From Gemmatimonadota bacterium (GTDB lineage Bacteria; Gemmatimonadota; Gemmatimonadetes; Longimicrobiales; RSA9): 63,334 nt of DNA. Under the pieces are notes generated by a model. It saw only the letters and a list, made by a program, of their open reading frames with translations. It was not told the origin of the DNA and searched no databases. Of this stretch, positions 2,718 to 57,244 are shown in pieces. Every line of letters begins with the position of its first letter. The first letter of the stretch is position 1. The position numbers were made by a program, and so were the translations under genes. Where the stretch lies: the NCBI GenBank assembly GCA_052389275.1, contig JBQTID010000055.1:1-63334 (forward strand), given 5' to 3'.

Positions 2718-4922
2718 GTGATACAGGGTCCGGATACGCCCTGGAGTGATGTCCTGCGCAGTCAGCTTACGTGGCAGTCGCTAGCAGCGGCTTCCACGTT
2801 ATTCTCGCTTGCCATTCGTCCTCGTCTGTTCGCGAATCGCGCCGAACAAACGCCGCAGGTTGCGCCGGATCGCCTGCGCGCGCTGCTCGACAAATCGTTT
2901 TCGGTCATGTGCATTGTCGATGGCATCGGCATTGTGCGCGCGATAACGCCGAATGCTGCGCACGTGCTCGGCGAGGCGTGCGATCGCGCAGCCGAGCTGG
3001 AGCTGGCGTTCGGGGAGCTGCTCCAAGCCGACCACCCCGAAGCGGTGCAAGCTGCGCTCGATGAGTTATCGCGCGCGGATGCAGCGGAGATGCGCACCTG
3101 GACTTTCCGAACCCGCGCACCGGACGGTACGCCGCGCCGGCTGGAAGCGGTCGGCACAAATCGTTTGTTCGATGCGGATATCACCGGCTTCACATTCGAG
3201 ATCCGCGACATAACCAAATCCTACGCCGCTCAGCAGCGCAATCGCATTTCGGGCACCGCTCTCGAACAATCTCCAGACAGTGTCATCATCACCAACGCCC
3301 AAGGCTTCATCGAATACGTCAATTCTGCATTCGAGAATTTGTCGGGGTATCGTTTGCCGGAACTGCGCGGCCGCACACCGGCGCTGTTGAAGTCGGACAA
3401 GCAGCCACCCGAAGTCTTCGAGCGCATGTGGCGCATACTGAAGGCGGGCAACGTATTCCGCGGTGAAGTCGCCAACCGCAAGAAGTCTGGCGAGATCTAC
3501 TTCGAAGACCTGATCATCGAGCCGATTCACGACGACCATGGGGTAGTGACCCATTTCATCTCGATTGGCCGCGACATTACCGAGAAGAAGCGCGCCGACA
3601 CGAACGCCGAAAGCGCGGCCTTCTACGATCCGATCAGCGGCATATCGACCTTCAAGCTGCTGCGCGAGCGGTCGCGTCAGATGCTGGCGCTCGCGCGTCG
3701 CCACGGTCATACCGCGGCGCTGCTGCATATCGACTTGAATGGGCTGCAAGCCGTCAACATCAGCCTCGGCCGCGAGGTCGGTGATGAGCTGTTACGCAAA
3801 TTCGCGGAACGCTTGAAGCAGGGGCTGCGCGAGAGCGATTCGATTGCGCGCCTGCACAGTGATGAGTTCCTGATCCTGCTCAGCGATGTCGCGGAGGAAG
3901 ATGCGACTGCTCGCGTGGTCCGCCGCCTGAAGGACAGCGTGAGTCGTCCGTTCCAGATCGGCTCGCATTCCGTCAACCTGGGCGCCAGCTTCGGTGTGTC
4001 TCTATACCCACAGGATGCGACGACCTTCGACGAGATGCTCGAGTATGCTTCGCTCGCAATGAAGCGCGCGCAGAGCAGTGGCAGCGGCTACGAATTCTAT
4101 CGCAAGGAGCTGACCGAGATCACCCTCGAGCGGCTCTCACTCGAAGACGATCTGCGCTGGGCCTGGGAACGCAAACAGTTCGTGCTGCACTATCAGCCCG
4201 TGATTGCGCTCTCCACGAACCGCATGATCGGCGCGGAAGCGCTGGCGCGCGGCCACATCATCGGCGCCGAAGCGCTGGCGCGCTGGCCGCACATGGAACG
4301 CGGCGAGATTTCTCCCGCGCAATTCATCCCGGTCGCCGAGCGCACGGGCCGCATTGTCGCACTGGATCGCTGGGCGATCGCGACTGCGACACGGCAGGCG
4401 GCCATGTGGTCACAGGAAGGCTGGCAAGGCTGGGTCTCCGTCAATTTGTCGGCGCGCTCGCTGCACGACGCGGACCTCCCCAGCTACATCGCGCGCTGCT
4501 TCGAGACGCACGGCCTGGAAGCCGGGCGCCTGGTGCTCGAGGTCACCGAGAGCGCGGCGATGCGCGATATCGAGATTACCGCGCGTATTCTCACGCAGCT
4601 GAAGCAGGCGGGCGCACTGATAGCACTCGATGATTTCGGCGTCGGGCATTCCTCACTTGCATACCTCAAGCATTTCCCGGTTGATCTGCTCAAGCTCGAT
4701 CACAACTTCGTGTCGGGCATTGGCTACGAGAAAAAGCACGAGCATCTGATCGAGACCATGATTACGCTGGCGCACCGGATCGGGGCGCAGGTCGTGGCGG
4801 AAGGCGTGGAGCAGGGCGAGCAACTGGATTGGCTGCGGTGCGCGGAATGCGACTATGTGCAGGGTTATTTGCTCGGCAGGCCGCAGCCGGCCGATGTTGT
4901 TTGGGGGAGCGTGGGAACATGA
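2718..4922 (+). CDS. PAS - degenerate GGDEF - EAL signalling protein (probable c-di-GMP phosphodiesterase)
   Basis: 734 aa ORF. PAS-like blocks (SPDSVIITNAQGFIEYVNSAFENLSGY). The GGDEF position reads HSDEF. EAL-domain blocks are present: EALAR, QFIPVAERTG, LEVTES, ALDDFGVGHSSLAYLK, AEGVE, QGYL. Confidence 0.85.
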   Translation: MIQGPDTPWSDVLRSQLTWQSLAAASTLFSLAIRPRLFANRAEQTPQVAPDRLRALLDKSFSVMCIVDGIGIVRAITPNAAHVLGEACDRAAELELAFGELLQADHPEAVQAALDELSRADAAEMRTWTFRTRAPDGTPRRLEAVGTNRLFDADITGFTFEIRDITKSYAAQQRNRISGTALEQSPDSVIITNAQGFIEYVNSAFENLSGYRLPELRGRTPALLKSDKQPPEVFERMWRILKAGNVFRGEVANRKKSGEIYFEDLIIEPIHDDHGVVTHFISIGRDITEKKRADTNAESAAFYDPISGISTFKLLRERSRQMLALARRHGHTAALLHIDLNGLQAVNISLGREVGDELLRKFAERLKQGLRESDSIARLHSDEFLILLSDVAEEDATARVVRRLKDSVSRPFQIGSHSVNLGASFGVSLYPQDATTFDEMLEYASLAMKRAQSSGSGYEFYRKELTEITLERLSLEDDLRWAWERKQFVLHYQPVIALSTNRMIGAEALARGHIIGAEALARWPHMERGEISPAQFIPVAERTGRIVALDRWAIATATRQAAMWSQEGWQGWVSVNLSARSLHDADLPSYIARCFETHGLEAGRLVLEVTESAAMRDIEITARILTQLKQAGALIALDDFGVGHSSLAYLKHFPVDLLKLDHNFVSGIGYEKKHEHLIETMITLAHRIGAQVVAEGVEQGEQLDWLRCAECDYVQGYLLGRPQPADVVWGSVGT

Positions 4923-4976
4923 GAACATGGGAGCATGGGTTTCGCGTTCCCATGCTGCCATGATCCCATGATCCCC
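4903..4976. repeat. period-8 inverted-arm hairpin (GGGAGCAT family) between convergent genes
   Basis: Left arm is GGGAGCGT GGGAACAT GAGAACAT GGGAGCAT GGG, loop TTTCGCGTT, right arm CCCATGCT GCCATGAT CCCATGAT CCCC. The stem is about 27 bp with 4-5 mismatches. The left arm contains the last codons and the stop of the EAL gene. Confidence 0.85.
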
Positions 4977-5855
4977 TCATCTCTCACTGATAGGGGCGGC
5001 TTCGGCCGCCTTTTTCTTTTCTTCCCGCTCTTTTTCCTTGCGCGCGCGAATCGCTTTCACTCGCTGATTGAAGCTCTGACGTCCGATCTCGGAGCTCGCC
5101 TGCCGCTCGATCTCGGCGAAATCGCGGTTGCGCGCGTTGATCTCATCGCGCCGGCCGTCGGGTGCCTTGAACGCGACCTGCGGCAACTTGATGTCGCCCA
5201 ATTGAATCGTGCCGTCCGGATTGATGCCCCAGCGCTTGCCGTCCTTGGTCTTGATCGTCCAGTCGAATGCGCGCCTGCGCGCCTCGGCTTCCGCAGCGAC
5301 CGAGTCGTGGTAGGCTCCCAGACTTTGCGCGATACGCGCGCGCACCGCCGCAGCGGGTGATGCATCCGGAGGCAGCGTGTAGCGCGCGCTACCGCTCAGA
5401 CGTGGGTCGATCGTGGTCGGCCGCAGGCGATCCGCCAGCGAGCCGCCCCGACCGCCGCCGTCATCGGCTGGCTCGACCGTTTCGGGACCCGGCGTAGCTT
5501 CCGGAATTCCTACAACCGGCCCCGGCGTCAGAATGACTTCCTCGGCGCCGGTTCGATCGCGATCCCGGTCTCGATCCCGACTCGATGCCGGCTCGACCGG
5601 CGCCGCAGTCTGTGGCATGCTGATGATTTGTGGCTCGTCTTCGGGAACCACAATCGTGATTTGCTCGAAGAGCTTGTGTGCGAGCGTTGGGATGAACGGT
5701 CTGGTTAGAAGGATCAGCAGCCCAATCGCGACGATATGAACAAGCACCGCGAGCGCGAGGGATGTTGGAGAGCGCGTGCCGCCCGGTTTGGTCGCGAGCA
5801 GCGTCCCGAACAAGCGGGGGCTGTCGGGTCTGCGCTTCTGTCCTTCTACAGCCAT
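4977..5855 (-). CDS. hypothetical membrane-anchored protein with Pro/Asp/Arg-rich linker
   Basis: 292 aa ORF with an N-terminal TM segment (LALAVLVHIVAIGLLILL), an RDRDRDRDR low-complexity linker and a Lys/Glu-rich C-terminus. I recognised no family. Confidence 0.5.
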   Translation of the reverse strand: MAVEGQKRRPDSPRLFGTLLATKPGGTRSPTSLALAVLVHIVAIGLLILLTRPFIPTLAHKLFEQITIVVPEDEPQIISMPQTAAPVEPASSRDRDRDRDRTGAEEVILTPGPVVGIPEATPGPETVEPADDGGGRGGSLADRLRPTTIDPRLSGSARYTLPPDASPAAAVRARIAQSLGAYHDSVAAEAEARRRAFDWTIKTKDGKRWGINPDGTIQLGDIKLPQVAFKAPDGRRDEINARNRDFAEIERQASSEIGRQSFNQRVKAIRARKEKEREEKKKAAEAAPISER

Positions 5856-10203: not shown

Positions 10204-10316
10204 GATAAGCGATAAGAGCGAGAAGAGCGATTAGAGCGATGGGAGCGTCGGTAACAGCGATAGTGTTTTCGTTCTCGCTCTTATCGCTCCAATCGCTCTC
10301 ATCACTTTTATCGCTA
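10204..10316. repeat. period-9 inverted-arm hairpin (GATAAGAGC family)
   Basis: Left arm is GATAAGC GATAAGAGC GAGAAGAGC GATTAGAGC GATGGGAGC. The right arm is GCTCTTATC GCTCCAATC GCTCTCATC ACTTTTATC, the reverse complement with 1-2 mismatches per unit. It includes the stop of the upstream gene and ends 8 nt before the dinG GTG. Confidence 0.85.
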
Positions 10317-11568: not shown

Positions 11569-11607
11569 CTTCTCACAATCTCACCTTCTCACAGCTCACA
11601 CACTCGC
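11569..11607. repeat. single-arm period-8 array (TGTGAGNN type)
   Basis: The minus strand reads GCGAGTGT GTGAGCTG TGAGAAGG TGAGATTG TGAGAAG. It fills the spacer between the TPR gene stop (11612) and the next gene start. Confidence 0.7.
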
Positions 11608-11611
11608 AACG

Positions 11612-18424: not shown

Positions 18425-18454
18425 CTCAGAATTGAACCCCTGAGTTACAGATTC

Positions 18455-18632
18455 GGTCGCGGGCGCGGACGCTGGCGCGGGCCGCGGGAAACCTGCGGGC
18501 GCGGGGCGCGGGCGCCGGCGCGGGAATGCCGGGTAGCGGGCGCCCGCTATCCCGGTTTGCCACGCCCGCGCCCGGAACCCGCGACCCGCTTAGTTTCCCG
18601 CGCCCATGACCGCGCCCGCGACCGCGCCCGCT
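18455..18632. repeat. GC-rich palindromic element (GCGGGCGC / GGGAA family)
   Basis: The left half is rich in GCGGG/CGCGGGAA and the right half in CCCGC/TTCCCGCG. A perfect palindromic centre, TAGCGGGCGCCCGCTA, sits at 18534-18549. It shares GGTCGCGGGCG with the elements at 43154 and 50938. Confidence 0.8.
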
Positions 18633-18660
18633 AAAAAAAGGGACCGAAACGCATGGTCTC
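18632..18660 (-). terminator. candidate rho-independent terminator of trxA
   Basis: The minus strand reads GAGACC AUGCGUUUC GGUCCC followed by UUUUUUU, about 35 nt downstream of the trxA stop. Confidence 0.55.
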
Positions 18661-18693
18661 GGCCCCAATCTGATTCGGCGCTAGCGCGTCGGC

Positions 18694-23312: not shown

Positions 23313-23367
23313 TAAGCATGGGAGCATGGGAGCATGGGAGCATGGGAGCATGGGAGCGTTGGTGAGC
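23313..23367. repeat. tandem octamer array (GGGAGCAT) x4 perfect plus degenerate flanking units
   Basis: The sequence reads TAAGCAT GGGAGCAT x4 GGGAGCGT TGGTGAGC. It lies in the divergent region between the clpB start (23302) and the lipoprotein gene (23431). Confidence 0.9.
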
Positions 23368-23395: not shown

Positions 23396-23424
23396 TTGAC
23401 ACAGCTTTACGGTGCGAATACGGT
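23396..23424 (+). promoter_or_regulatory. candidate sigma-70-type promoter giving a leaderless lipoprotein mRNA
   Basis: TTGACA (23396-23401), 17 nt spacer, TACGGT (23419-23424), then 6 nt to the ATG at 23431. Confidence 0.35.
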
Positions 23425-23430
23425 AGCGGC

Positions 23431-23739
23431 ATGAATTTCATTCGCATACTGGTCGTGCTTGGCACCCTTTCGGTCGCGGCTTGTCAGCAATCCGGCACAG
23501 TCGACCCTAAAATTGGCCTGACACGCTCCGAATTCATCGGCGTAATGAGCGATCTTCAGCTGGCGCAGCCCGAGCACCGCGCGGCCATTCTCAAAAAGCA
23601 CCGCACGACCGAGGCCGAAATCCGGGCATTCGTGCAGGCGCTGGCCGCGGATCCCATCGCCCTGAGCGCGACGCTGGACAGCATTCAGAACCGGGTAGAG
23701 CGTGGCCGCACGTTCCCCGTGCAGCCGCCTCCCCAGTAG
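23431..23739 (+). CDS. small lipoprotein, unknown function
   Basis: 102 aa. MNFIRILVVLGTLSVAAC has a lipobox (VAAC). Codon usage is consistent with the neighbouring genes. Confidence 0.6.
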   Translation: MNFIRILVVLGTLSVAACQQSGTVDPKIGLTRSEFIGVMSDLQLAQPEHRAAILKKHRTTEAEIRAFVQALAADPIALSATLDSIQNRVERGRTFPVQPPPQ

Positions 23740-23750
23740 CGGCGTAGAGC

Positions 23751-24005
23751 TTGCACTTTCGTGGGATCGTACATGATTGGTCGAGGATTACAATGGAAGT
23801 GCTTGGACATATAGAGACGGATTGCACCGGCAATTGGCGCCTGATCGGTAGTGGGGAGCATCGGCAGATACGTTGCGACCGGTGCGGCTCCCAGTTTGCC
23901 GCGACGCCCGAGAATCGACTGGCTGCGATCGACGAAAACTATGCCGGGATCTACTTGCGGCGTCTAACGGCCGAGGGCATGACGCACCTGGAATCGGAAG
24001 GCTAA
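23751..24005 (+). CDS. hypothetical small Cys-containing protein (possible zinc-ribbon; start may be 23793)
   Basis: 84 aa ORF with Cys residues at C..CDRC. I saw no recognisable family and support is weak. Confidence 0.3.
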   Translation: MHFRGIVHDWSRITMEVLGHIETDCTGNWRLIGSGEHRQIRCDRCGSQFAATPENRLAAIDENYAGIYLRRLTAEGMTHLESEG

Positions 24006-24014
24006 AGAACGGTA

Positions 24015-24092
24015 ATTGGGAGTATGGGATCATGGGAGCATGGGTGTGTGTTCGTCATGATCCGATGTCTCCCATGCTCCTCACCATTCCCA
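24015..24092. repeat. period-8 inverted-arm hairpin (GGGAGCAT family)
   Basis: Left arm is TGGGAGTA TGGGATCA TGGGAGCA TGGG. Right arm is CATGATCC GATGTCTCC CATGCTCC TCACCATTCCCA. Several pairing registers are possible. Confidence 0.8.
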
Positions 24093-24172: not shown

Positions 24173-24239
24173 GGGAACATGCCATGCTCCCATGCTCCCA
24201 TGCTCCCATGCTCCCATGCTCCCATGCTCCCATGATGCC
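24173..24239. repeat. tandem octamer array (ATGCTCCC) x6 perfect, preceded by one inverted unit GGGAACAT
   Basis: 24184-24231 holds six perfect ATGCTCCC units, the exact reverse complement of the array at 23320-23351. The array ends 5 nt before the guaA stop codon. Confidence 0.9.
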
Positions 24240-35091: not shown

Positions 35092-35574
35092 CTAACGTTC
35101 GCCGGTGGCGGCGCGGTATAGCATGATTGCGATCATCGCCGCAATCGCGGCGAAGACCGCAGCAATCGGAGCGGCCGTGATCAGCATGCTCCACGACTCG
35201 GCCTGGGCTGAGCGCGTCAGCCCGAAATAGAGCGCATCGCGCAGCCATTTACCAAGAAATATATACACCGCGACGAACAGAAGGCTGTCGCCCTCGAACA
35301 GATCGCGCGAGCGCGCGCCGAAAAAGCCGATCACCGCGTTGACCAGCGCGAGCGCGCCAAAGGTCGTGAGTGACAGTGCATCGGTTAGTACGCCGAGCAG
35401 CAGTCCAAGAGCGGCCGCCGCCGCTCCTTGCAGCCGGCGCGCGGCCAGCAGCACGGCCACGGTCATCAAGTCCGGCGCGCTGGTGGTGAGCCCGATCGCC
35501 ACGTGCAGGACCAGGTGGGCGATCACGAGCACGGCTATGAAGATCCAGAATGGGAGACCGGTTCTCACCGCCAT
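35092..35574 (-). CDS. mreD: rod shape-determining protein MreD
   Basis: 160 aa polytopic membrane protein immediately after mreC. Confidence 0.75.
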   Translation of the reverse strand: MAVRTGLPFWIFIAVLVIAHLVLHVAIGLTTSAPDLMTVAVLLAARRLQGAAAAALGLLLGVLTDALSLTTFGALALVNAVIGFFGARSRDLFEGDSLLFVAVYIFLGKWLRDALYFGLTRSAQAESWSMLITAAPIAAVFAAIAAMIAIMLYRAATGER

Positions 35575-36471
35575 CTAGAAGCTTCCCGTGGTCGATGCAG
35601 CCAGCGAATCGGTGGTGGCGGTGTCGGGGGGGACCGCGGTGTTCCAGAATCTCGAAACATCGCTTTGACGCGCGCGCGTTCCGACCAGCACGTGTATTAC
35701 GGCTTCGGGTCGAACCGCGGCGCGGATCAGGTAGCTTTTGCGCCAGCCGGTGTCGGCTTCCTCGATGCCCAGCACCTGCCCGAGCGGAATGCCGCGCGGA
35801 TAAACGCCACCACGGCCGGATGTCACGATCGGCGTGCCAGGTTGCAGGTCGCTGTGGAACGGTGCGCCCGTCAGAGCAAGCAGATCTTCCTCGCGGTAGC
35901 GACCGCGCCGCGGCTCGACGATGCCATACGCCTGTCCGTCCGCCGTCATCGCGCTCGCGCGAAAATCAGGATGCGTCCAGTCGCGCGCGTGCGCGGTCTT
36001 TGCCTGTACATCGACGATGACGCCGACCAGTCCCTCGGGCGCGAGCACCGGGCTGTCGACCTCCACGCCATCAGCGCGGCCCACATTGAGCATGAACGTG
36101 CTTTCGGCGCCCGAGACACCGAGCTTCAAGACTTCCGCCGGCACAAAGGAAGTGCCCGTGCGTGCGCGCAGCCCGAGCAGCGCGCGCAGCCGCGCGTTCT
36201 CTTCGCCCAGCGTCGCTTCCGCTGCCACCAGGGCTGCCAGCGAATCACGTTGTGCGCGCAAATCGTTAACATCGACTGAGGTCGCACGGCGATTTGCAAT
36301 GGTGGCTTGCGCGGTAAGAAACGGCCTCAGCGCGGTGTCGCGAATCGCGTGCTGAATCGGCCGCTGATAGTGTGCGGGAAGTACAAACAGAATCAGCGCG
36401 CCCAGCGCAAGACCAACGGCTATGGCGGTGTCTTTCCGTCTGGCTTTGCGGGTTCCATCGAAGTCAAGCAC
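35575..36471 (-). CDS. mreC: rod shape-determining protein MreC
   Basis: 298 aa with a GTG start, an N-terminal TM, a coiled-coil and a beta-rich C-terminal domain (VTSGRGGVYPRGIPLG). Confidence 0.85.
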   Translation of the reverse strand: MLDFDGTRKARRKDTAIAVGLALGALILFVLPAHYQRPIQHAIRDTALRPFLTAQATIANRRATSVDVNDLRAQRDSLAALVAAEATLGEENARLRALLGLRARTGTSFVPAEVLKLGVSGAESTFMLNVGRADGVEVDSPVLAPEGLVGVIVDVQAKTAHARDWTHPDFRASAMTADGQAYGIVEPRRGRYREEDLLALTGAPFHSDLQPGTPIVTSGRGGVYPRGIPLGQVLGIEEADTGWRKSYLIRAAVRPEAVIHVLVGTRARQSDVSRFWNTAVPPDTATTDSLAASTTGSF

Positions 36472-36506
36472 GCGCTATCGCTATCGCTATCGCTGTCCCT
36501 ATTCGC
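36472..36506. repeat. tandem hexamer array (GCTATC) x3 plus variants filling the mreB-mreC spacer
   Basis: GCGCTATCGCTATCGCTATCGCTGTCCCTATTCGC. The minus strand reads (GATAGC)n directly abutting the mreC GTG. Confidence 0.8.
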
Positions 36507-36507
36507 T

Positions 36508-37548
36508 TTACGTAGTCAGAACGTTCCGGAAACGATCGAAGTCATCGAGAATGCGGCCGGCTCCTCGAACCACACAGGTCAGCGGCTCCTCGTCGACATG
36601 GATCGGCAGATTGGTCTCATGCGCCAACAGCATGTCGAGCCCTCGAATCAGTGCGCCGCCACCCGTCATCACGATACCGCGATCGACGATATCCGATGCC
36701 AGCTCCGGCGGCGTGATCTCGAGCGCGCGCCTGACTGCATCGACGATCTGCTGCACCGGCTCCTGGATACACTCGCGGATTTCCTGCGAGTGAACGCGCA
36801 CCGTCTTGGGGATGCCGCTGACGAGGTCGCGCCCCTTGACTTCCATCTCCCGTTCGTCGCCGGCATTGAACGCCGAGCCGATCTGAATCTTGATGGCTTC
36901 CGCGGTCGGCTCACCGATCAGCAAGTTGTAGTTCTTGCGCAGGAACGTCACGATCGCGAGGTCGATCTCGTCACCACCGACCCGGATCGATGTGTCCGAC
37001 ACGATGCCGTTCAGCGCAATGACCGCGATCTCGGTCGTGCCACCGCCAATGTCGATGACCATGTTGCCGGTCGGCGTGTCTACCGGCAGACCGACGCCGA
37101 TCGCCGCAGCCATCGGCTCCGCCACCATGTAGACTTCTTTCGCGCCGGCCGCGGCCGCGCTCGAACGCACCGCGCGGCGCTCCAGCTCGGTAATGCCCGA
37201 GGGCACGCCGACTATGACGCGAGGCTTCATGCGAAAGATGCGCTTGTTGGTGACCTGGCGAAGAAAATGGCGCAGCATGATCTCGGTGATGTCGACGTCG
37301 GCAATCACACCATCCTTCAGCGGCCGCACCGCCATGATTCCTTCCGGCGTCCGGCCGAGCATGCGCTTGGCTTCCAGGCCGATCCCCTTGATGCGCTGGC
37401 TGCCACGCTCGACCGCGACTACCGATGGCTCGTTCAGCACGATGCCTTCGCCCTTGACGTACACGAGCGTGTTCGCTGTGCCGAGATCGACGGCGATATC
37501 GTTGACCGGCAACAGCCGGCCGCCGCTGAACAGATCCGCTAAAGCCAT
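36508..37548 (-). CDS. mreB: actin-like rod shape protein MreB
   Basis: 346 aa. DLGTANTLVY, DIGGGTTE and other typical MreB blocks. Confidence 0.95.
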   Translation of the reverse strand: MALADLFSGGRLLPVNDIAVDLGTANTLVYVKGEGIVLNEPSVVAVERGSQRIKGIGLEAKRMLGRTPEGIMAVRPLKDGVIADVDITEIMLRHFLRQVTNKRIFRMKPRVIVGVPSGITELERRAVRSSAAAAGAKEVYMVAEPMAAAIGVGLPVDTPTGNMVIDIGGGTTEIAVIALNGIVSDTSIRVGGDEIDLAIVTFLRKNYNLLIGEPTAEAIKIQIGSAFNAGDEREMEVKGRDLVSGIPKTVRVHSQEIRECIQEPVQQIVDAVRRALEITPPELASDIVDRGIVMTGGGALIRGLDMLLAHETNLPIHVDEEPLTCVVRGAGRILDDFDRFRNVLTT

Positions 37549-37551
37549 TAC

Positions 37552-37585
37552 TTTAGATCATCCACTGCATGTCGTTTTCTGTCAA
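37552..37585 (-). promoter_or_regulatory. candidate promoter for mreB with a very short or no leader
   Basis: On the minus strand: TTGACA (37585-37580), ~17 nt spacer, GATGAT, then ~10 nt to the mreB ATG at 37548. Confidence 0.3.
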
Positions 37586-37590
37586 GCAAA

Positions 37591-37811
37591 TCGAGAACCT
37601 CGGTTTAGAACTTCGGTTTAGAACTTCGGTTTAGAACTGCGGATTAGAACTGCGGATTAGAACTTCGGTTTAGAAAGGCGGCAAAACCGGTAATCCGGTT
37701 TTCTAATCCGATTTTCTAAGCCGGTGTTCTAATCCGGTGTTCTAAGCCGGTGTTCTAATCCGGTTTTCTAAGCCGGTGTTCTAATCCGGTTTTCTAATCC
37801 GGTGTTCGAGA
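37591..37811. repeat. 220-bp inverted-arm hairpin built from 13-nt tandem units (TTTAGAACTTCGG)
   Basis: Left arm has 7 units (37591-37681), the loop is CAAAA, and the right arm has about 9.5 units of CCGGTGTTCTAAT/CCGGTTTTCTAAG (37687-37811). Units pair at 11 of 13 positions with a recurring 2-nt mismatch. Confidence 0.9.
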
Positions 37812-37813
37812 TC

Positions 37814-38281
37814 CTAGTGCCGCCCCGTACTTCCAAAGCCGCCTTCGCCCCGTCCGCTGGCCGGCAAACTATCGCGTTCCTGCCAACCGATACGTAGCAC
37901 GCGCGCGATCAACAGCTGCGCAATACGCTCACCATGCGCGATCTCCTGCGGTTCCGCATCGAAATTGATGAGCGGAATGCGCAGCTCGCCTCGATAGTCC
38001 GCATCGATCGTGCAAGGCGTGTTGATGATGCTGATGCCACGCCTGAGCGCCAATCCCGAGCGCGGTCGCACCTGCGCCTCCATGTCGGCCGGCAACGCAA
38101 TCGCGAGACCCGTCGGGATCAGCTGCCGTCCGAGCGGCGGTATGACCACCGTTTCGCCCGCGTTGCGCAAATCCACGGCCGCCGAGAGCGCGGTGCCGTA
38201 CTGCGGCAGCTCCCAGTCGGCGGGATAGTTGGCGAGGCGCTTGACCAGCACCCGCACAGTCTCAGCCTCGCCCCGGCTCAC
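37814..38281 (-). CDS. dut: dUTP diphosphatase
   Basis: 155 aa. AVDLR, RSGLALR, IDADYRGE and GGFGSTG motifs. Confidence 0.9.
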   Translation of the reverse strand: MSRGEAETVRVLVKRLANYPADWELPQYGTALSAAVDLRNAGETVVIPPLGRQLIPTGLAIALPADMEAQVRPRSGLALRRGISIINTPCTIDADYRGELRIPLINFDAEPQEIAHGERIAQLLIARVLRIGWQERDSLPASGRGEGGFGSTGRH

Positions 38282-38289
38282 ACGATCGC

Positions 38290-39402
38290 CTAAAGAACCT
38301 TCTCGACCGCCGTGTAGTCGAGCCCGAACGCCTCTGCCACTGCCTCATACACGACCTTACCGGCGACGATGTTCAGACCGAGCATCAGCGCGCGATCTTC
38401 CTTGCATGCATCCTTCCAGCCCCGATTCGCGAGCTTCAGACCGTACGGCAGCGTCGCATTCGTCAACGCGAAGGTCGACGTGCGCGGCACGCCGCCGGGC
38501 ATGTTCGCGACCGCATAGTGAACTACGTGATCGATGATGTAGATCGGGTCCTCGTGCGTGGTCGGCTGAATCGTCTCGACGCAGCCGCCCTGGTCGACGG
38601 CGACATCGACGATTACCGAGCCCGGTTTCATGATGCTGAGGTCTTCGCGCCGCACCAGTTTGGGTGCTTTCGCGCCCGGCAGCAGCACACCGCCGATCAC
38701 CAGATCGGCCGTGGCGAGCTGATCGAGCAGGTTTTGGCGATTCGAGTAGAGCACCGTCACGTTGGCTGGCATGACGTCGGATAGATAACGCAGACGTGGC
38801 AGTGACGTGTCGAGAATCGTAACGCGTGCGCCCAGCCCCGCGGCCATCTTCGCGCTGTTCGTTCCGACGACGCCGCCACCGATGATCAACACGTGACCAT
38901 TCTCGACGCCAGGCACGCCGCCCAGCAGGATGCCACGACCGCCATAGAACTTCTCGAGGTATTTCGCCCCCTCCTGCACCGCCATGCGGCCGGCCACTTC
39001 ACTCATCGGTGTAAGCAGCGGCAGCTCGCCACTCGGCAGCTGGACCGTCTCGTATGCGATGCAGATCGCGCCGGACTCGATCGACGCCTTGGTCAGACCT
39101 TCATCGGCCGCGTAATGGAAGTACGTGAAGATGACCTGGTTCTTGCGCATGAGCGGCCATTCGCGCGCGATCGGCTCTTTCACCTTCATGATCATGTCCG
39201 CGCGCCCCCACACAGCCTCCGCCGTCGCTGCGATCTTGGCGCCGAACGACTCGTACTGCGCATCATCGAAGCCGCTGCCGTCACCTGCGCCGCGCTCAAT
39301 GAGCACGGTGTGACCGCTGTTGACCAACGCCTCCGCGCCGCCCGGTGTCAGTGCGATGCGGTTCTCGTTGGTTTTGATTTCCTTGGGAACGCCGACAATC
39401 AT
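38290..39402 (-). CDS. ald: alanine dehydrogenase
   Basis: 370 aa. MIVGVPKEIKTNENRIALTPGG plus the NAD-binding motif VLIIGGGVVG. Confidence 0.9.
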   Translation of the reverse strand: MIVGVPKEIKTNENRIALTPGGAEALVNSGHTVLIERGAGDGSGFDDAQYESFGAKIAATAEAVWGRADMIMKVKEPIAREWPLMRKNQVIFTYFHYAADEGLTKASIESGAICIAYETVQLPSGELPLLTPMSEVAGRMAVQEGAKYLEKFYGGRGILLGGVPGVENGHVLIIGGGVVGTNSAKMAAGLGARVTILDTSLPRLRYLSDVMPANVTVLYSNRQNLLDQLATADLVIGGVLLPGAKAPKLVRREDLSIMKPGSVIVDVAVDQGGCVETIQPTTHEDPIYIIDHVVHYAVANMPGGVPRTSTFALTNATLPYGLKLANRGWKDACKEDRALMLGLNIVAGKVVYEAVAEAFGLDYTAVEKVL

Positions 39403-43108: not shown

Positions 43109-43137
43109 AGTTTACTGGCTTTTGGGGTTTAGGACAA
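43109..43137 (-). promoter_or_regulatory. candidate promoter for rpsO
   Basis: On the minus strand: TTGTCC (43137-43132), 17 nt spacer, TAAACT (43114-43109). This leaves a ~80-nt leader ending in GAGGAGG before the ATG. Confidence 0.3.
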
Positions 43138-43153
43138 CCGGCCTGGAACGAAT

Positions 43154-43329
43154 GCGGGCGCGGTCGCGGGCGGGGGCGCGGGCGCGGGAACTAACTCGGG
43201 CGCGGGTGGCGGGCGCGGGCTGCGGGCGCGGCCCGCTGCCCAAACCATGACCACGACCCGCGCCCGCGACCCGCTAACCGCGAACCGCGTCGTTTCCCGC
43301 GCCCGCGCCCCCGCCTGCGCCCCCGCCCG
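43154..43329. repeat. GC-rich palindromic element (GCGGGCGC / GGGAA family) overlapping the ribF 3' end
   Basis: The left half is GCGGGCGCGGTCGCGGGCGGGGGCGCGGGCGCGGGAA.. and the right half is its imperfect reverse complement (..TTTCCCGCGCCCGCGCCCCCGCC). Bases 43156-43190 are 34/35 identical to 50978-51012. Confidence 0.85.
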
Positions 43330-44239
43330 AGAGAATTCGGCGCGCAGCCTGCCCATCGTTCCGCATCGCGGCCGCCAACTCAGCCATCGAGTCAAACCTC
43401 TCGATGCCTCGAATCCGGTCCACGAACTCGACCTTGAGCATCTGGCCGTACAGATCACCGGAAAAATCGAAGAGGTGGACCTCGATGCTAGGCAGAGCCT
43501 GTTCGAACGTCGGGCGCGGGCCCAGATGCGCCACGCCCGGCCGACCGTTTGCGCGCACGGCGTAGATGCCTTCGAGCGGAATCAGCTTGTCCGGATCCGC
43601 GACCTCGAGATTGGCGGTCGGCATGTCCAGCTCCCTGCCACGACCGTCCCCACGCACCACGGTGCCGCGCAGCGAGTAGGCTCGCCCCAGTCCGGCGGCC
43701 GCCGAAACGACGTCGCCATGAAGCAGCGCTTTCCTGATCTTCGAGGATGAGACGTTATCGCCATTCAGCCGGTACGGCTTCACAATGTCGACCTCGAATC
43801 CAATTTCAGCGCCAATCCGCTTGAGTGTCTCGACATCGCCGCGGCGGCCACGCCCAAAGCCGTGATCGTAACCGATGACGAGATGGGACAAGCCGTAACG
43901 GCCGATCAGGATTTCGCGGACGAAGCGCTCCGGCTCGTATTGCGACAACTCGTATGTGAAGCGCACGTGCGCAATCACATCGATGCCGTATTGAGCGATG
44001 ATCTCCTCTTTCTCGTGGGGCGTAGTCAGCAGCTGCGGCGCATCGACTGGTCGCACGATCTTCACGGGATGCGGGTCGAACGTCACCAGCACGCTGCGCT
44101 CGCCGCGCTCGCGCGCGACGCTCACCAGCTCATCGAGCACCTCCTGATGGCCGCGATGCACGCCGTCGAACGTGCCGACCGTGACTGCGCTGGGCTCACT
44201 CAATGGGAAACACCTTTTTCGGCTTGATGCGCTCGCCAT
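43274..44239 (-). CDS. ribF: bifunctional riboflavin kinase / FAD synthetase
   Basis: 321 aa. VGTFDGVHRGH and a C-terminal riboflavin kinase block (PTANL, YAV, GPRPTF). The last ~20 aa (SGGGAGGGAGAGNDAVRG) are encoded by the GC-rich repeat. Confidence 0.9.
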   Translation of the reverse strand: MASASSRKRCFPLSEPSAVTVGTFDGVHRGHQEVLDELVSVARERGERSVLVTFDPHPVKIVRPVDAPQLLTTPHEKEEIIAQYGIDVIAHVRFTYELSQYEPERFVREILIGRYGLSHLVIGYDHGFGRGRRGDVETLKRIGAEIGFEVDIVKPYRLNGDNVSSSKIRKALLHGDVVSAAAGLGRAYSLRGTVVRGDGRGRELDMPTANLEVADPDKLIPLEGIYAVRANGRPGVAHLGPRPTFEQALPSIEVHLFDFSGDLYGQMLKVEFVDRIRGIERFDSMAELAAAMRNDGQAARRILSGGGAGGGAGAGNDAVRG

Positions 44240-45699: not shown

Positions 45700-45776
45700 G
45701 AGAGAATGTGGGATTGTGGGAGTGTGTGAGTGTGGCAAACATCCATCTCACATTCCCACATTCTCACACTCACTCC
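45700..45776. repeat. period-8 inverted-arm hairpin (GTGAGTGT/GGGAGTGT subfamily)
   Basis: Left arm is GAGAATGT GGGATTGT GGGAGTGT GTGAGTGT GG. Right arm is CTCACATT CCCACATT CTCACACT CACTCC. It contains the infB stop (45770-45772) and abuts the DUF503 ATG. Confidence 0.85.
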
Positions 45777-48451: not shown

Positions 48452-48523
48452 GAGATTATGGGAGTGTGTGAGTGTGAGAGGGTGTGATCCCACACTCTCA
48501 CTTTCCCGTGTTCTCAAACTCCC
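48452..48523. repeat. period-8 inverted-arm hairpin (GTGAGTGT/GGGAGTGT subfamily)
   Basis: Left arm is GAGATTAT GGGAGTGT GTGAGTGT GAGAGGGT GTG. Right arm is CACACTCTCACTTTCCCGTGTTCTCAAACTCCC. The right arm encodes the last ~8 codons and the stop of the L7Ae-like gene. Confidence 0.85.
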
Positions 48524-50821: not shown

Positions 50822-50855
50822 GCAAATAAAAAAGTGGGGGCGCGTCCCCCCACTT
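50822..50855 (-). terminator. strong rho-independent terminator / leader attenuator upstream of rimP
   Basis: The minus strand reads AAGTGGGGGGA CGCG CCCCCACTT followed by TTTTTATTT. Confidence 0.7.
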
Positions 50856-50937: not shown

Positions 50938-51168
50938 GCGGGCGAGGGCTTGGGCGAGCAACTCGGGAAACAAACTCGGGCGCGGTCGCGGGCGGGGGCG
51001 CGGGCGTGGGAAGCAACGCGGTCGCGGGAGGCGGAGCGCGGGTCGAGGTCGTGGGCAAGGGTGGCCTGTCCAGCGCGACCGCGCCCGGGACGCGCAACCC
51101 TCGATCCGAAAGTGTCCCGCGCCCGCGACCACGCCCGCGACCGCGACCGCGACCGCGACCGCGACCGC
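50938..51168. repeat. GC-rich palindromic element (GCGGGCGC / GGGAA family) ending in (GACCGC) x6
   Basis: The left half has GGGCGCGGTCGCGGGCGGGGGCGCGGGCGTGGGAA. The right half has TCCCGCGCCCGCGACCACGCCCGC followed by GACCGC x6. It starts directly after the stop codon of the OsmC-like gene. Confidence 0.85.
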
Positions 51169-51624
51169 TCAAATCTCGCTAATGTCCGCCGTCCAGGAGA
51201 CTTCGACAGCGCCCCGAAGCGAGGCCGCTGTCGGGCATTTCTCCTGATGCTTGGCCAGCAGCCGATCCACGGTTTCCCGCGTGCCGATCGGAATGCGCAA
51301 CCGGTAGTTCACTGTGATGCGCGTAAGTACGGGCAGGCCATCGCGAATTTCGTTGTCACCAACGACATCCGCGGTAATTGCATCGCCGCTCAACTTCACC
51401 CCGCGAGCTTCCAGCCCGCCGCTCAGTGTGCCGAGCATTCAGGCACCAGTCGCACCCACGATGTAGTCCACCGGCAGCGGCAGGTCCTTTTCCTTATCCA
51501 GTTTGTAGTGCGCCTTGATCGCGCCGTGCACGCCGGTATCGAATACATCACCGGTTTCGAGTGTGATGCGACGCTGCGTGCCCTCGATTTTTACGACGCG
51601 CGCCCGGGATTCGTAAAAGCTCAT
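51169..51624 (-). CDS. OsmC/YhfA-like protein interrupted by an in-frame TGA at 51439-51441 (candidate selenoprotein, or nonsense-split gene)
   Basis: ORFs 51439..51624 and 51169..51438 are contiguous and in the same frame. The joined product reads ..PLPVDYIVGATGA[TGA]MLGTLSGGLEARG..HQEKCPTAASL. The TGA sits where OsmC-family proteins have their first conserved Cys, and the second conserved Cys (CP) is present. Confidence 0.6.
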
Positions 51625-57210: not shown

Positions 57211-57244
57211 GCAAAGCAAAAAGCGCGAGCCGCGCTTATTTTCG
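57211..57244 (-). terminator. candidate bidirectional hairpin terminator after pgeF
   Basis: AAGCGCG AGC CGCGCTT (57221-57237) is flanked by a T/A-rich run on each strand, about 50 nt downstream of the pgeF stop. Confidence 0.5.

Follow-up and report, generated by a model that had tools for sequence, protein, structure and literature searches.

An inverted pair of 13-nt repeat arrays between dut and mreB in an uncultured Longimicrobiales bacterium

The contig JBQTID010000055.1 of an uncultured Longimicrobiales (Gemmatimonadota) bacterium was analysed over its whole length of 63,334 nt, which is referred to as the window. Between the dUTPase gene dut and mreB it carries a large hairpin-capable element (37591-37811) that consists of 7 tandem 13-nt units, an apical hairpin with the loop TAAT, and 9 units imperfectly complementary to the former. 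We favour, with some reserve, the interpretation that this element is a lineage-specific palindromic minisatellite, built from two inverted arrays of one 13-nt unit, which was gained recently, after the lineage had split, and which belongs to a class of elements with fast turnover. It probably is not a purpose-built regulatory or protein-binding device.

Derived state, architecture and fold of the element

The order of both genes is clade-wide: among 80 Gemmatimonadota loci examined, dut precedes mreB in about 70. In the closest relatives the spacers between both genes comprise 33 nt (L001), 41 nt (L086 and L090), 47 nt, and 89 nt. These spacers are short and unstructured and do not contain any trace of the array. 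The 45 nt adjoining mreB in the host align with the entire 41-nt spacer of L086 and L090. The host has therefore gained about 224 nt, located precisely at the stop codon of dut. The element represents an insertion or expansion specific to this lineage, acquired after the split from the nearest sequenced relatives. A local seed of the unit was sought in the spacers of L001, L086, and L090, where only weak resemblances were found. The host MreB is 97% identical to MreB of the metagenome-assembled genome (MAG) SAR201, and the best homologues of Dut share 85-89% identity. Look-ups of the exact Dut and MreB sequences of the window gave no match.

Tandem arrays were detected by Tandem Repeats Finder (TRF), and the unit counts given for the element are those in the assembly of one metagenomic contig. 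TRF reported a period of 13 nt for both arms, with 6.3 copies and 92% matches on the left (37594-37675) and 9.0 copies and 87% matches on the right (37691-37807). For the right arm a period of 26 nt was the better fit (93%). The left arm is composed of TCGAGAACCTCGG, two copies of TTTAGAACTTCGG, TTTAGAACTGCGG, ATTAGAACTGCGG, ATTAGAACTTCGG, and TTTAGAAAGGCGG, and the right arm ends with CCGGTGTTCGAGA. On the gene (minus) strand the right arm becomes the 5' arm, (ATTAGAACACCGG)n, and the left arm the 3' arm, (CCGAAGTTCTAAA)n. Matches to the unit pattern TTAGAACNNCGG with at most one mismatch were found 16 times in the window (2.3 expected), 14 of them inside the element. With a GC content of about 0.44 compared to 0.62 for the window, the element is AT-richer than its surroundings, in agreement with a first-pass annotation made from the letters of this DNA alone.

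The inverted-repeat arms of 88-93 nt show 74-77% complementarity and can pair in at least 8 alternative registers. Folded as single-stranded DNA, the element reached -62.3 kcal/mol, compared to -27.8 +/- 3.4 kcal/mol for shuffled sequences (z = -10), and none of 200 shuffles equalled it. TRF, the inverted arms, and the fold thus support the earlier recognition of a large hairpin-capable element of 13-nt units at this position, and its description as the largest of several similar elements in the window was borne out among about ten hairpins on the contig. Several details had to be revised. The apex is not a CAAAA loop but a perfect 8-bp stem closed by the tetraloop TAAT. Watson-Crick pairing between opposing units at 11 of 13 positions, which had been assumed throughout, is the upper value of a range of 9-11 (typically 10) and is not uniform. 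The terminal motifs, taken for an inverted pair, are direct repeats of TCGAGA. This bordering repeat could have arisen by duplication of a target site or of a microhomology, or it may be no more than a diverged terminal unit.

The regularly spaced mismatches along the stem had been taken to suggest a recognition lattice for a protein or an RNA. This was not supported by the distribution of unit variants, since the 26-nt superperiod is restricted to the right arm and the variants are not mirrored between the arms. The periodic mismatch reflects arm-specific differences in the consensus (CTTCGG versus CACCGG), each arm having been homogenised separately. If an arm is homogenised alone, any substitution specific to it becomes a mismatch every 13 nt. 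Two independently homogenised arrays therefore produce periodic mismatches, and no recognition lattice is needed to explain them.

The description of the element as cruciform-capable is doubtful. Using DNA parameters, the duplex was calculated at -297 kcal/mol and the two hairpins at -62 and -58 kcal/mol. Only about 40% of the duplex energy would be recovered, which leaves a cost of about +177 kcal/mol for the full cruciform. When the standard free-energy relation of supercoiling is used for a rough estimate, the removal of 21 turns would provide relief of about 80-160 kcal/mol. The cost is at or above this payoff, and a full cruciform appears energetically unfavourable and unlikely. At the RNA level, the plus strand folds at -113 kcal/mol and the gene strand at about -99 to -102 kcal/mol. 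The antisense RNA has the more stable fold, since the G.T mismatches are located on the plus strand. The strand asymmetry of G.U pairs, used as a test for a function at the RNA level, does not favour the mRNA.

Promoter context and searches outside the locus

On the minus strand, which is the leading strand according to GC skew, the genes are arranged in the order ald, dut, element, mreB, mreC, and mreD (Table 1). The element is separated by 2 nt from the TAG of dut and by 42 nt from the ATG of mreB. A promoter-like site precedes mreB, with its TTGACA box 5 nt (not 6 nt, as stated previously) from the left arm and its GATGAT hexamer 8 nt before the start codon. The arrangement TTGACA-17-GATGAT-8-ATG recurs in L001, in which the dut stop codon and the -35 box overlap. 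In this relative both hexamers are kept while the 17-nt spacer has diverged, which is a good sign that the mreB promoter is real. As judged from its sequence, it would give rise to a near-leaderless mRNA. It was thus substantiated that the element lies, as proposed, past the dut stop codon and ahead of a credible mreB promoter.

Other promoter-like motifs were noted in the course of the analysis. In the distant Longimicrobiales L014, L018, L006, L008, L007, L019, and L017 a different conserved motif, CTTGCA/CTTGCC-17-TAACTT/TAGCTT, is located about 100 nt upstream of mreB. In the window, a site of the leaderless type (TTGACA-17-TACGGT-6 nt-ATG, 23396-23433) precedes an open reading frame (ORF) for a 102-aa lipoprotein and is conserved in L092 (10-46). 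This ORF is followed by a conserved Cys-rich ORF of 70-84 aa (23751-24005). Neither of the two ORFs matched a Pfam family.

Table 1. Coordinates of the element, the adjoining genes, and the inverted-array hairpins in the window
Feature	Position	Strand	Description
left arm	37591..37681	+	7 tandem 13-nt units, consensus TTTAGAACTTCGG
hairpin apex	37683..37702	.	perfect 8-bp stem AAAACCGG / CCGGTTTT, tetraloop TAAT 37691-37694
right arm	37695..37811	+	9 tandem 13-nt units CCGGT[G/T]TTCTAA[T/G], 26-nt superperiod
TCGAGA, left border	37591..37596	+	copy of 6-nt direct repeat
TCGAGA, right border	37806..37811	+	copy of 6-nt direct repeat
mreB promoter-like site	37557..37585	-	TTGACA 37585..37580, 17-nt spacer, GATGAT 37562..37557
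dut	37814..38281	-	dUTPase (PF00692), TAG stop 37816..37814
mreB	36508..37548	-	
mreC	35575-36471	-	
mreD	35092-35574	-	
E1	4912-4975		8-nt unit
E2	10205-10315		9-nt unit
E3	18454-18631		6-nt unit, GC-rich
E4a / E4c	23315-23357 / 24182-24234		8-nt unit
E4b	24017-24079		8-nt unit
E5 (dut-mreB element)	37591-37811		13-nt unit
E6	43154-43329		6-nt unit, GC-rich
E7	45707-45775		8-nt unit
E8	48459-48510		8-nt unit
E9	50977-51168		6-nt unit, GC-rich

The element shares with Rho-independent terminators the position of a stem-loop right past a stop codon, but it differs from them by a stem of about 90 nt with 23-26% mismatches, by an apex stem with 4 G-C pairs, and by the lack of a U-tract adjacent to the stem base. 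The sequence UUUGCUU follows the end of the long stem at a distance of about 12 nt. A scan of 36400-38400 with a terminator consensus found nothing terminator-like at the element, which agrees with the earlier statement that it is not a canonical terminator. No match to Rfam was obtained at the gathering thresholds. In E-value mode only models of microRNA precursors (20-36 bits, cut-offs 100-105) and the small RNA RT-12 (19.8 bits, cut-off 44.2) were reported, and the microRNA-precursor matches are the generic noise that long hairpins produce. No tRNA genes were found. The Pfam scan of 20 window proteins did not yield any match to a transposase family, and a tblastn search did not detect a PDDEXK_3 gene in the whole window.

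The 13-nt unit is not repeated elsewhere in the 63-kb contig, so that the array has no second copy there; other unit families of the contig are reused. Two consecutive units were compared to 241 million metagenome records with 5 unrelated matches and no meaningful recurrence. A scan of a viral collection for the unit gave 0 matches, and a plasmid search revealed no similarity. From a phage search a single 47-nt match resulted, to a direct array of 13-nt units in Microcystis phage MaAM05, which probably occurred by chance. The external matches to the unit are about as frequent as one would expect of a 20-base pattern when very large collections are searched. The first-pass annotation had named an unstructured spacer in relatives, together with absence of the unit from other places, as the outcome that would mark the array as a one-off product of slippage, and this is the situation that the spacers and searches revealed.

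Short direct arrays of 13-nt units resembling that of the element were seen at 401-452 of L091 (MaAM05 78173-78224) and at 1364-1404 of L084, consisting of GGTTTAGAACTAT x4 and CCGAAGTTCTAAG x3, respectively. They stand in unrelated sequences, and the resemblance is probably due to chance.

These results bear on the idea of a DNA-level device, either a cruciform or a lattice of 13-bp sites bound by a protein, in the manner of an iteron or centromere, or by an RNA. Plasmid iteron and centromere arrays, such as parC of R1 and the omega-binding heptads of pSM19035, are built from short units. Like these, the element consists of short units that adjoin one another, both directly repeated and inverted, beside a promoter; unlike them, it lies in a chromosomal housekeeping context (ald, dut, and mreBCD) with no partition or replication genes nearby. 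The strict periodicity of 16 units and an AT-rich perfect apex, which would favour the nucleation of extrusion, are compatible with such a device, as are the similar 13-nt units in L084 and MaAM05. We nevertheless consider it very improbable. The unit was not encountered in other parts of the contig, at any orthologous site of the relatives, or in plasmids, and its external matches do not exceed chance. Elements of the same build use unrelated units of 6, 8, and 9 nt. Many near-equivalent pairing registers imply that there is no unique structure, and the estimated cost of the cruciform weighs against extrusion.

Inverted-array hairpins on the contig and their turnover in relatives

The dut-mreB element is a member of a class. 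The contig carries about 10 hairpins of short tandem units in inverted orientation with units of 6, 8, 9, and 13 nt. Inverted array pairs numbered 9 in 63 kb, whereas 637 kb of related loci contained about 4, and arrays with units of 6-16 nt occurred at 0.27 per kb on the contig and at 0.025 per kb in related loci, corresponding to an about 10-fold difference. The higher density is not merely due to assembly bias, because relatives sequenced with long reads also lack arrays near mreB. In all 10 elements the array on the left is rich in G or purines and the array on the right rich in C or pyrimidines, so that the G/purine-rich arm is located 5' on both strands. E3, E6, and E9 are homologous copies with 74% column identity, including long near-identical stretches (18440-18650, 43120-43350, and 50945-51185). 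The class is clade-specific with a fast turnover and makes up most of the long intergenic spacers on the contig.

Almost all of the hairpins begin 0-12 nt past a stop codon; arrays placed in this way follow 10 genes and in some cases include the stop codon. Several are located inside conserved operons, as in rimP-nusA-ylxQ-[E8]-infB-[E7]-DUF503-rbfA-truB-ribF-[E6]-rpsO-pnp, and some precede the next start codon by only 8-19 nt. Arrays at such positions cannot be full terminators. Canonical terminators with a GC-rich stem and a U-tract were detected at 50832-50855, 18640-18666, 4992-5013, and 57221-57237; three of these four are directly beside an array (E1, E3, and E9). Direct-only half arrays were also observed, namely (GCGATA)x4 after the mreB stop codon (36473-36507) and GTGAGA-like 8-mers after the stop codon of a TPR gene (11577-11611), both given as read on the gene strand. 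The last approximately 17 codons of ribF (GGGAGGGAGAGNDAVRG, 43274-43330, minus strand) are encoded by the right arm of E6, and the repeat has extended or replaced the C-terminus of this protein.

The arrangement within operons is relevant to the question whether the dut-mreB element was selected as a transcription barrier. It could act as a terminator or insulator of dut against read-through from ald-dut that would occlude the mreB promoter, or as a barrier to RNase III or 3'-exonucleases which uncouples the dut and mreB mRNAs. Its precise position, with the stop codon of dut on one side and the -35 box of a conserved promoter on the other, and the very stable gene-strand RNA hairpin are in line with such a role, and repetitive extragenic palindromic (REP) elements and bacterial interspersed mosaic elements (BIMEs) in operons of E. 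coli are textbook examples of it. We regard this explanation as unlikely, since the stem base lacks a U-tract and the terminator scan was empty at this site, and since the canonical terminators of the host sit beside E1, E3, and E9 instead of being replaced by them. Furthermore, E2 and E8 lie 8-19 nt upstream of essential cistrons such as infB and must be read through. All close relatives manage without any such element, L001 even with a -35 box that overlaps the dut stop codon, and the G.U pairs favour folding of the antisense strand rather than the mRNA.

Comparison of orthologous spacers revealed a rapid exchange of arrays. Past infB, where E7 with its 8-nt units is found in the window, L093 (MAG SAR201, JBQTJO010000378) carries a hairpin of (AGCGATAAG)4.4 and (TCGCTCTCA)4.6 at 3635-3716, and L094 and L095 have no spacer. 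The hairpin of L093 directly follows the infB TAG; its unit family is that of window element E2, which is located at another locus and likewise starts flush with a TAG. The spacer between orf2 and guaA harbors E4b and E4c with CATGGGAG units in the window and a hairpin of GAGCGCGA and CTCTCGCG in L092. E8 occupies the spacer between ylxQ and infB, which comprises 7 nt in L093. Between DUF503 and rbfA, where no array was noted in the window and the spacer of L093 comprises 1 nt, L097 has a 150-nt hairpin (261-409) of (GAACG), (AACCGTG), and (GGTTAC)x10. A direct repeat of 7 nt, GTTTTAT, stands on both sides of this hairpin (p ~0.01) and represents a duplication of the ancestral stop/start junction. 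Taken together, the differences between orthologous spacers and the homology of E3, E6, and E9 indicate that the architecture is clade-wide, that individual elements are short-lived, and that some unit families are dispersed.

Between ribF and rpsO, L096 (2143-2571) and L097 (2520-2957) contain in antisense orientation a gene for a 125-aa PDDEXK_3 protein (PF13366), which is bracketed by inverted arrays of the GGGGAG type. The corresponding site in the window is occupied by E6 and has no PDDEXK_3 gene.

Since the organism is represented by one metagenomic contig and no other assembly of it is on record, and since unit numbers of tandem arrays are error-prone, a mis-joined or collapsed repeat was taken into account. 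An assembly artefact of this kind is extremely improbable. About ten like elements are each precisely intergenic and flush with a stop codon and disrupt no gene, the same inverted-array architecture recurs in the independent assemblies L018, L063, L074, L092, L093, and L097, and the flanks of the dut-mreB element are collinear with those of relatives on both sides.

Known repeat systems, origin and significance

The closest precedent is provided by the convergent GGGAATC heptamer arrays of Xanthomonas campestris and X. axonopodis (Rehm et al. 2015, PMC4692102). These genomes contain 183-186 such arrays each, 89-93% of them intergenic, with a mean distance of 28 nt to the upstream and 160 nt to the downstream ORF. 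From these, 70-75 convergent inverted pairs capable of stem-loop formation result; their lengths vary between species and their function is unknown (PMC4692102). The dut-mreB element is a variant on this poorly understood kind of repeat. Both consist of two convergent inverted tandem arrays of a short unit that is longer than a microsatellite unit (7 + 9 units of 13 nt in our case), are intergenic and nearer to the upstream ORF, vary in copy number between species, and have the G-rich array 5' on both strands. In contrast to the one genome-wide, G-quadruplex-capable family of Xanthomonas, several unrelated families with 6-, 8-, 9-, and 13-nt units are present on our contig. The unit TTTAGAACTTCGG of the dut-mreB element is AT-rich, unique in the available data, and without a G-tract for a G-quadruplex; a GGG run, which it lacks, is present in the 8-nt and 6-nt sister elements. 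Moreover, its arms are far longer and contiguous around a 4-nt loop, and most Xanthomonas sites are conserved between species, whereas the orthologous sites studied here are empty or carry other units.

Abundant lineage-specific intergenic 7-nt arrays with a patchy distribution and unknown origin are also represented by the cyanobacterial STRR heptamers and the TAACTGA repeats of Beggiatoaceae (MacGregor 2015, PMC4679880). Nearly all of these arrays are direct, each genome has a single unit, and TAACTGA is typically located just upstream of start codons (PMC4679880). The dut-mreB element, in contrast, is an inverted pair past a stop codon. The likeness lies in the lineage-specific occurrence of short-unit arrays between genes.

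With respect to function, REP elements and BIMEs are the nearest model, although they constitute a different family. They form intercistronic hairpins at the 3'-ends of genes in operons and usually are not terminators, but can stabilise the upstream mRNA or bind gyrase or integration host factor. REP sequences are imperfect palindromes of 20-40 nt with one conserved sequence and GTAG/CGTC heads, and are spread by RAYT transposases. The dut-mreB element shares the intercistronic 3'-end hairpin with REPs, BIMEs, and REPINs. In contrast to them it is made up of tandem 13-mers, is single-copy in the data, has no conserved head and no high copy number, and no RAYT was seen among the 20 window proteins.

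The best structural analogy is found in the foldback (FB) transposons of Drosophila, eukaryotic elements whose long inverted terminal repeats are made up of short tandem subrepeats. The inverted termini formed by subrepeat arrays, the unequal arms, a central loop that may be absent, and a length of about 220 bp in the range of MITEs (transposable elements of miniature size with inverted repeats) all fit. Accordingly, the main rival to a locally grown minisatellite is a transposed non-autonomous, MITE-like foldback element which would have been mobilised in trans by an enzyme with its gene elsewhere in the genome and whose arms later drifted and slipped. We consider it possible but doubtful. 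Terminal inverted repeats, a hallmark of MITEs, are trivially present in such a structure. The insertion is precise relative to close relatives, both borders carry TCGAGA, and the GC content deviates from that of the genome. Other families are dispersed within the contig (E3/E6/E9 and the CATGGGAG arrays) and at non-orthologous sites across genomes (AGCGATAAG). The 7-nt direct repeat flanking the L097 hairpin and the arrays bracketing the PDDEXK_3 nuclease-family gene in L096 and L097 also agree with mobility. On the other hand, no extra copies of the 13-nt array were found in the contig or in the metagenome, viral, plasmid, and phage collections. A border test on 15 elements gave no general signal of target-site duplication, with L097 as the sole exception. 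No cognate transposase was identified among the 20 window proteins scanned, and PDDEXK_3 is missing from the window. The termini of the families are unrelated, so that one sequence-specific transposase cannot serve all of them, and half arrays in direct orientation follow stop codons as well. A cargo-carrying foldback transposon, with E4a and E4c around two small ORFs, was considered as a candidate and rejected, as both ORFs are resident and syntenic in L092.

The interpretation as a lineage-specific minisatellite has to be weighed against several of these observations. The convergent G/purine-rich polarity of all 10 elements is not predicted by simple slippage. Three unit families are dispersed, which speaks for copying or mobility over purely local growth: the GC-rich elements E3, E6, and E9 align among themselves, arrays of the CATGGGAG type occur at 4-5 loci, and the AGCGATAAG unit occupies one locus in the window and another in the SAR201 MAG. 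Likewise, the direct border repeat of the dut-mreB element and its AT-richness relative to the genome both fit an insertion from elsewhere.

The element occupies the sole tolerated point of a very compact junction, right after the dut stop codon and upstream of the mreB promoter. If it is a minisatellite, its growth may be pictured as follows. A short hairpin or fold-back seed may have been lengthened as each arm underwent replication slippage. Changes could be copied between the arms by hairpin-templated (quasi-palindrome) strand switching, each arm would be homogenised individually, and the element would persist as nearly neutral. It presumably has no sequence-specific reader. Its one physical effect would be a long imperfect stem-loop, formed by the DNA when single-stranded and by dut read-through RNA in its 3' part (about -99 kcal/mol as RNA). 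At most it may act as an intercistronic hairpin of the REP/BIME type, that is as a barrier at the 3'-end, a site of pausing or processing, or an insulator before the mreB promoter.

An improbable alternative to passive slippage is that this Longimicrobiales clade possesses an active process that writes palindromic minisatellites at gene ends. The dut-mreB element would then be the footprint of enzyme-driven templated repeat synthesis or of a structure-specific mobility. This would fit the G/purine-rich array being 5' on both strands, as if two 3'-ends at a break or a hairpin had been extended with one unit and then joined head to head. It would also fit the recurrence of unit families at unrelated loci and in different genomes, and the arrays that bracket a small gene of the PD-(D/E)XK nuclease family in relatives.

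For dut or mreB the single element probably matters little, as none of the close relatives has it. Of greater interest is the class. On this contig, in the packed conserved operons ald-dut-mreBCD and rimP-nusA-infB-rbfA-truB-ribF-rpsO-pnp nearly every long spacer is a short-unit hairpin with a fixed strand polarity and a quick sequence turnover between species. From a practical point of view it should be noted that repeats of this type disrupt assemblies from short reads and give rise to low-complexity tails at C-termini, as seen in ribF. Points of particular interest are the convergent polarity, the unit families common to several genomes, and the nuclease gene bracketed by arrays. Literature searches for repeats of Gemmatimonadota gave nothing specific. 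As far as we found, the phenomenon had been reported only for Xanthomonas; our analysis extends it to the Gemmatimonadota and indicates that it is not tied to G-quadruplex units. These elements may offer a tractable system to study the origin and spread of palindromic repeats, the tolerance of long hairpins in bacterial chromosomes, and the processing of operon transcripts.

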